Positions 36,767-43,613 of a stretch of DNA of 64,000 nt are shown piece after piece (within the stretch, counting starts at the first letter, position 1; each line of letters opens with the position of its first letter). The notes under the pieces were generated by a model. It saw only the letters and a program-made list of their open reading frames with translations. It did not search any database and was not told where the DNA came from. Source of the DNA: Escherichia coli (GTDB lineage: Bacteria > Pseudomonadota > Gammaproteobacteria > Enterobacterales > Enterobacteriaceae); assembly GCF_044647545.1 (NCBI RefSeq), contig NZ_CP172818.1. One strand, written 5' to 3'. The position numbers and the translations under genes were made by a program.

Positions 36767-43613
<6,847 letters not shown>

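Follow-up and report, generated by a model that had tools for sequence, protein, structure and literature searches.

A recent clonal amber mutation in yfaS, a predicted type II alpha-2-macroglobulin gene, in fluoroquinolone-resistant Escherichia coli

In the 64-kb stretch of Escherichia coli DNA that we analyzed (hereafter, the window), the gene yfaS is interrupted by one premature amber codon, and we consider it very likely that this represents a recent, clonal nonsense knock-out of the gene. In the explanation that we favor, a C-to-T point mutation changed a glutamine codon (CAG) to amber, which would have resulted in a very recent loss of function in yfaS. This mutation appears to have arisen once in a fluoroquinolone-resistant clone (ST648 by strain names) and, most simply, after the GyrA substitutions S83L and D87N; the TAG allele would then have spread with the clone.

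Results and Discussion

A single amber codon interrupts the yfaS frame

A first-pass annotation made from the sequence alone described a single in-frame amber codon as the sole disruption of yfaS. We translated positions 41386..36767 in one frame; this confirmed the description, as the frame contains 1,539 codons plus the terminal stop, with an internal stop at codon 705 only. Based on the ORF list, the two yfaS ORFs (39272..41386, 704 aa, and 36767..39196) do share one frame, and the translated peptides flanking the TAG are exactly those quoted in that annotation. The minus-strand sequence around the break reads GAA CAG TAG TCG CTG, with the TAG at 39274..39272. A 4.6-kb frame with one stop cannot have originated by chance; it is a disrupted gene. 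The main parts of yfaS are as follows.

36767..41386, minus strand: whole yfaS frame; likely start ATG 41371, RefSeq start GTG 41281
39272..39274, minus strand: premature amber TAG, from CAG (Gln); codon 705 of the long frame, residue 700 in 1,534-aa numbering
39275..41371, minus strand: truncated N-terminal product, 699 aa, with predicted signal peptide, MG2, and the start of the bait-region domain
36767..39271, minus strand: untranslated 3' part of yfaS, with the rest of the bait-region domain, A2M, and bacterial MG10

Of 5,426 complete E. coli genomes searched with a 55-mer containing the TAG, 50 matched it exactly, a count that corresponds to the 100%-identity band of the search and excludes one-mismatch matches. 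The carriers include strains named ST648, IMT16316, MS6198, ECONIH1, and Ecol_881, and their sources (humans, dogs, pig, wild bird, dolphin, and wastewater) span several continents. We take the TAG-carrying clone to be ST648, based on strain names rather than on MLST.

The first-pass annotation had named an assembly error as one possibility that would overturn its reading. There is no direct support for a sequencing or assembly error in the window's source; this source may hold errors or private mutations, as a 1-nt homopolymer indel close by in yfaL (49007-49008) shows. However, the change in yfaS is a substitution, not a homopolymer indel, and the identical TAG 55-mer recurs in 50 complete genomes that were assembled independently by many laboratories using many platforms. 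These 50 assemblies agree, which rules out assembly error as the source of the TAG and leaves error of any kind in the window's source with a negligible probability.

RefSeq labels yfaS “pseudo, internal stop” in the TAG-carrying genomes examined, and the pseudogene status of yfaS in TAG carriers is therefore already public. Our literature searches for yfaS found no paper on this yfaS allele. Mechanistically, the lesion is minor, being a standard nonsense pseudogene of a well-known kind that is flagged in public annotation.

The ancestral codon is CAG

The first-pass annotation had proposed an ortholog comparison at this site, and that comparison returned a sense codon throughout: codon 705 is CAG in 21 of 21 E. 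coli loci outside the TAG clone (K-12 plus 20 others spanning the diversity of yfaS alleles). In an alignment of homologs, Gln also occupies this position in E. albertii and in two closer enterobacterial homologs; in more distant homologs the residue is L, I, V, or T, and the site is variable. The mutation is thus a C-to-T transition from CAG (Gln) to TAG, and the ancestral codon is CAG.

Two other origins were rejected. An ancient or conserved stop is ruled out by the allele census together with the homolog alignment, and the lesion is not the same as that of K-12, where this codon is CAG and a separate TGA lies at codon 1373. A Dcm-site (CCWGG) hotspot for C-to-T change was also rejected, as the context read from the sequence, ACAGCAGTC, contains no Dcm site.

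The stop codon is recent

In at least 42 of the 50 TAG carriers, the full 4,620 nt of yfaS match the window with no more than 1 nt of difference, and there has therefore been no secondary decay of the gene since the TAG arose. At least 18 genomes without the TAG differ from the window by 1 nt over the same 4,620 nt. Six of these one-mismatch genomes were inspected at base level; in all six, the sole difference is T versus C at codon 705, and all six encode the intact protein WP_179110772.1.

The window carries two codons for fluoroquinolone resistance in gyrA, which lie 6.9 kb upstream of the yfaS TAG and on one clonal background with it.

46141-46143, minus strand: gyrA codon 83, TTG (Leu), S83L, fluoroquinolone resistance
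46129-46131, minus strand: gyrA codon 87, AAC (Asn), D87N, fluoroquinolone resistance

In strain 201609 (CP048107; a urine isolate from China), 19,620 nt were compared with the window, and the yfaS site is the one nucleotide that differs; this strain has intact yfaS and already has GyrA L83/N87. Because a strain with intact yfaS already carries both GyrA changes, the stop would most simply have arisen after S83L and D87N, inside the resistant clone. A back-mutation in 201609 is possible instead; this would need an extra step.

We also compared the window with strain CLSC36 over positions 26767-51386 (24.6 kb). The only differences are gyrA S83L, gyrA D87N, the yfaS TAG, and the 1-nt yfaL indel, and four TAG carriers (from Germany, China, the UK, and Tanzania) have exactly those three substitutions relative to CLSC36. 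All of the differences between the window and CLSC36 in this stretch alter function, with no synonymous or intergenic change, which is striking in a young resistant clone, although they are too few for a test.

The suggestion in the first-pass annotation that yfaS is a very recent nonsense pseudogene is thus borne out by the ancestral CAG, by the 18 or more intact genomes that differ at 1 nt, and by strain 201609. The gene shows the features expected of a recent pseudogene: a stop in place of a sense codon, restriction to one lineage while the intact allele is extant, and the loss of domains whose need for function follows from knowledge of the family.

Two further observations concern the background on which the allele occurs. 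Four loci (L020, L021, L027, and L028) have flanks that differ from the window by at least ~1% but yfaS sequences that are identical save for the TAG base, which suggests either that related lineages have this allele in common or that recombination has moved it. Of these strains, 98203 and FDAARGOS_1285 also have GyrA L83/Y87, and upstream of gyrA they carry an additional insertion of two genes.

YfaS is predicted to be a type II alpha-2-macroglobulin

A Pfam search with the two halves of the frame identified MG2 (E = 2.8e-19), A2M_BRD (E = 1.2e-10), A2M (E = 3.1e-12), and bMG10 (E = 9.9e-6), at the following positions.

About 40052..40342, minus strand: MG2 domain, N-terminal half
39293..39391, minus strand: A2M_BRD, part before the TAG (Pfam model positions 2-30)
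38954..39223, minus strand: A2M_BRD, part after the TAG (Pfam model positions 53-140)
38510..38761, minus strand: A2M domain, C-terminal half
36821..37147, minus strand: bacterial MG10 domain, C-terminal half

The TAG falls ~40 residues into a bait-region domain of ~147 residues, splitting the Pfam A2M_BRD match. Beyond it lie the rest of the bait region, the A2M domain, the interval between A2M and MG10, and the C-terminal MG10 domain; the interval has no Pfam match and corresponds to the thioester-like domain in MagD-type proteins. A search for C.EQ showed that the CxEQ thioester motif is absent from all 1,539 yfaS codons, and the only Cys residues in the long frame are C30, C32, and C1194. 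Homologs of YfaS in Pseudomonas, Serratia, and Yersinia align with ~55% identity over ~97% of the length, and the E. albertii homolog is 91% identical. Based on its domain architecture, the absence of CxEQ, and an operon with DUF2138, DUF1175, YfaQ, and YfaP partners rather than pbpC, YfaS is predicted to be a type II (thioester-less) bacterial alpha-2-macroglobulin of the YfaS/MagD family.

The truncated product would retain the predicted signal peptide but not the trapping domains

The first-pass annotation gave the N-terminal fragment a length of 704 residues. This count is correct from the first ATG (41386), but the ATG at 41371 (Met6 of the long ORF) is the more likely start and gives 699 aa. 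The latter overlaps the end of yfaT, has a Shine-Dalgarno-like GGAAGGA directly upstream, and yields the 1,534-codon frame that the same annotation cited. The automatic RefSeq start, GTG 41281, gives 1,504 aa and lies past the hydrophobic signal sequence; it is probably wrong, as it would remove the predicted signal peptide. The E. coli YfaS protein cluster, which has 40,950 members, is stored in the short-start form.

By inspection, the N-terminus of YfaS contains a hydrophobic stretch ending in GLANA/DD, in register with the A-x-A that homologs conserve, and this position agrees with the cleavage site of MagD (PMC3735191 Table 2). A lipobox-like string, IAAC, lies inside the hydrophobic core and is unlikely to be used for lipoprotein anchoring. 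Because a signal peptide appears to be present, export of the N-terminal fragment, as proposed in the first-pass annotation, is plausible. The fragment is nonetheless unlikely to be stable or functional because it ends ~40 residues into the bait-region domain. The expected product is a 699-aa, signal-peptide-bearing fragment that would keep the N-terminal MG domains but lack the bait region, A2M, the A2M-MG10 interval, and MG10; it would probably be degraded, and the trapping reaction would be impossible.

We found no credible re-initiation site after the TAG. Within 115 nt, the frame offers only GTG starts (39196 and 39160), neither of which is preceded by a Shine-Dalgarno sequence, and any product initiated there would be without a signal peptide; re-initiation past the TAG was therefore rejected.

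Full-length YfaS is not expected from suppression or read-through

As an alternative to a pseudogene, the first-pass annotation had raised a full-length product made by amber suppression or stop-codon read-through. Under this alternative, yfaS would still be functional, with full-length YfaS made by suppression or by efficient read-through, perhaps conditionally. The frame downstream of the TAG is fully open, and the residue is variable among homologs (Q/L/I/V/T), so whichever amino acid was inserted should probably be acceptable at this site. In wild-type E. coli, UAG is misread at a low rate, chiefly by tRNA-Gln, and such near-cognate misreading would restore Gln at codon 705; natural coliforms with amber suppressors have also been reported.

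However, the open frame is explained by the age of the mutation, given that no more than 1 nt separates at least 42 carriers from the window and that 201609 differs at the TAG only. The TAG is confined to one clone, with CAG at every other E. coli locus checked, and its flanks are base-for-base identical to the intact allele over the whole gene and over 19.6 kb; because of this identity, no read-through signal has evolved. A conserved stop and a dedicated context, two hallmarks of programmed read-through, are both absent. The base after the TAG is U, which is generally a strong termination context following UAG and a poor one for supE.

The supE suppressor (glnV CUA) would insert Gln at UAG, which is the ancestral residue, but none is encoded in the window, where ARAGORN found no tRNA gene at all in 64 kb. 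A search for the supE-type glnV allele matched 158 genomes and recovered its positive controls (C600, DH5alpha, JM109, XL1-Blue, and HB101). The 60 listed of these 158 genomes are mostly K-12 laboratory derivatives and include no TAG carrier; this exclusion covers the 60 sampled genomes and the supE-type glnV allele alone. Pyrrolysine or other recoding was rejected as not credible in E. coli given the ancestral CAG.

With a stop restricted to one clone, unchanged flanks, no tRNA gene in the window, and no TAG carrier among the supE-type genomes sampled, the idea of a full-length product found no support, and we regard a still-functional yfaS as very unlikely. Full-length YfaS is presumably absent from TAG carriers. 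At most, trace amounts are possible through near-cognate read-through, which would regenerate wild-type YfaS because the ancestral residue is Gln; such leakiness would not constitute a mechanism.

The partner genes are intact

The order of genes on the minus strand is gyrA, yfaA, yfaT, yfaS, yfaQ, and yfaP, with atoB beyond on the other strand. Based on the ORF list and the RefSeq annotation of matching loci, the partners of yfaS in the operon are as follows.

41925..43613, minus strand: yfaA (DUF2138), first operon gene, intact
41305..41928, minus strand: yfaT (DUF1175), intact; its 3' end overlaps the start of yfaS
35117..36766, minus strand: yfaQ, intact; starts directly after the yfaS stop
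34336..35112, minus strand: yfaP, last operon gene, intact

These four genes are intact in all TAG carriers examined. The yfaA DNA of the window is identical to that of the TAG carriers IMT16316 and MS6198 and of CLSC36, which has intact yfaS, and these three strains have the same RefSeq protein accession for yfaA. Downstream of yfaS, there are zero differences between the window and CLSC36 within the compared stretch. The intact partner genes are uninformative either way, because the clone is too young.

Because the yfaQ start abuts the yfaS stop after 2.5 kb of untranslated mRNA, polarity probably lowers the expression of yfaQ and, with it, yfaP. A 699-aa fragment combined with reduced yfaQ and yfaP would mean that the Mag-like complex is effectively lost in the TAG clone.

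Other features of the window were noted. The yfaL/ehaC autotransporter adhesin gene is split at 49007-49008 (minus strand) into ORFs 48952..51156 and 47399..48940 by the loss of one base from a short run of G (on the coding strand, relatives have GGG and the window has GG). The gene is intact in CLSC36 and in the TAG carriers IMT16316, DFL.5, MS6198, and PC-NDM34, and in 201609 it is also intact over its last 1,488 nt, the part fetched. Because these relatives, including four TAG carriers, have an intact gene, the indel either occurs in the window's source alone or reflects a sequencing error in the homopolymer. An Rfam search identified the MicF sRNA at 20166-20259 (plus strand, 116.8 bits) and naRNA4 at 23920-23996 (minus strand, 59.8 bits, just over threshold); both are expected near ompC and rcsC, and neither is unusual.

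yfaS is strongly constrained but has been lost repeatedly

Pairwise dN/dS between the window and 14 other yfaS alleles ranges from 0.045 to 0.09 and is similar before and after codon 705. The gene is full length in 5,362 of 5,426 genomes (about 99%). These values indicate that yfaS is a constrained, near-universal E. coli gene and, because dN/dS is low in both halves, that the TAG represents recent damage to a functional gene.

Nonsense mutations in yfaS were found in four lineages.

Window clone (ST648 by names): CAG to TAG at codon 705; 50 genomes
K-12: TGG to TGA, W1373*, at codon 1373 of the long frame; 364 genomes
Third lineage, including an O121 strain: TGG to TGA, W1126*, at codon 1126; 4 genomes
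O145:H28: GAG to TAG, E463*, at codon 463; 27 genomes

In a quasi-random sample of yfaS, 2 of 14 loci had nonsense mutations, and the protein database contains many truncated forms of E. coli YfaS. Two frameshifted yfaS copies were also seen; these come from loci chosen for odd length and may be sequencing errors.

Several other changes were observed in the operon. RefSeq annotates yfaQ as a pseudogene (internal stop or frameshift) from locus position 4721 in O157:H7 (L007 and L008) and O145:H28 (L014), such that these Shiga-toxin-producing lineages, which are related, have damage in another gene of the operon. In strain A38 (L005), an in-frame tandem duplication of 33 nt (11 codons) lies at approximately locus positions 3024-3056, or yfaS codon ~975, and the gene is annotated as intact; based on match coordinates alone, strain 14EC047 has the same two-piece yfaS match of 4,653 nt. 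Strain PSJ-12 (NZ_AP027622.1) has ~100 nt of yfaS left, beside a CoA-transferase gene and yfaT, which suggests that most of yfaS was deleted, and 43 of the 5,426 genomes have no yfaS match.

These losses bear on whether the loss of YfaS was itself advantageous, such that the TAG was selected rather than carried as a passenger, for example through relief from an envelope cost in a clone exposed to antibiotics or biocides. Selection would explain the repeated independent knock-outs of yfaS and yfaQ, which comprise at least four independent nonsense alleles in addition to the yfaQ pseudogenes of O157:H7 and O145:H28. The three substitutions relative to CLSC36 in 24.6 kb, all function-altering and none synonymous, point in the same direction. 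If this were true, the Mag-like complex could be a costly periplasmic shield against effectors that E. coli lineages have repeatedly reduced whenever it was not needed.

However, yfaS is a 4.6-kb target, and several knock-outs among thousands of genomes are expected from mutation and drift in young clones; recurrent knock-outs alone do not show selection for loss. Species-wide dN/dS of 0.05-0.09 reflects long-term selection keeping the protein, about 99% of genomes have the gene, and each nonsense allele is confined to one young lineage. Moreover, an intact sister, 201609, exists in the same resistant background. We therefore consider selected loss unlikely. The broader proposition that the TAG is either a leaky hypomorph or an adaptively selected loss, and not a neutral passenger, is likewise quite improbable. 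Under the recent clonal knock-out that we favor, the TAG would have been fixed by hitch-hiking with the clone rather than by selection.

Significance of the yfaS allele

Within this fluoroquinolone-resistant E. coli clone, which is disseminated worldwide, the TAG offers a clean single-nucleotide marker of one sub-clade. Strain 201609 and the TAG carriers form natural isogenic pairs for probing the uncharacterized type II alpha-2-macroglobulin operon of E. coli; one example of a question for such pairs is whether the operon protects against peptidoglycan-targeting T6SS effectors, as with MagD of P. aeruginosa. The allele is also further evidence that this operon, although under strong constraint in the long term, is lost repeatedly on terminal branches of the E. 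coli tree.

Comparison with known systems

The closest parallel to the lesion is in yfaS of K-12, which is the same gene in the same operon by gyrA and which also has one in-frame stop in an otherwise open frame of 1,534 codons, labeled “internal stop” by RefSeq. The K-12 stop is independent: it is a TGG-to-TGA change at codon 1373, near the C-terminus, whereas the stop in the window is a CAG-to-TAG change at codon 705, in the middle of the protein. The K-12 and window alleles differ at 117 of 4,620 nt.

Among other bacterial alpha-2-macroglobulins, E. coli YfhM/ECAM and Salmonella Sa-A2M (type I) share the superfamily fold with YfaS, including MG domains, a bait region, and a thioester-domain-like region. 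However, the type I proteins carry a CxEQ thioester, are lipoproteins, and have their genes beside pbpC (PMC5764988), whereas YfaS has no CxEQ and a different gene neighborhood.

MagD of P. aeruginosa (PA4489, from the magABCDEF operon) is, like YfaS, a large A2M-like protein with a bait-region domain and no CxEQ; it is periplasmic and has a signal peptide, as predicted for YfaS (PMC3735191, PMC5764988). Both are encoded with partners in multi-gene operons, of five genes in E. coli and six in P. aeruginosa. MagD is periplasmic and associated with the inner membrane, traps protease without a thioester, and needs partner proteins from its operon (PMC3735191, PMC5764988); its loss destabilizes MagA, MagB, and MagF (PMC3735191). 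The mag operon was recently found to protect P. aeruginosa against peptidoglycan-targeting T6SS effectors (PMC12663445). Within the YfaS/MagD family, non-covalent protease trapping and envelope protection have been demonstrated for P. aeruginosa MagD only. The two proteins differ in that YfaS has three Cys residues and MagD has none, and the ~55% identity of YfaS refers to Pseudomonas homologs, as PA4489 itself was not aligned. Finally, MagD is intact and was shown to trap protease non-covalently (PMC5764988), whereas the YfaS encoded in the window is truncated.
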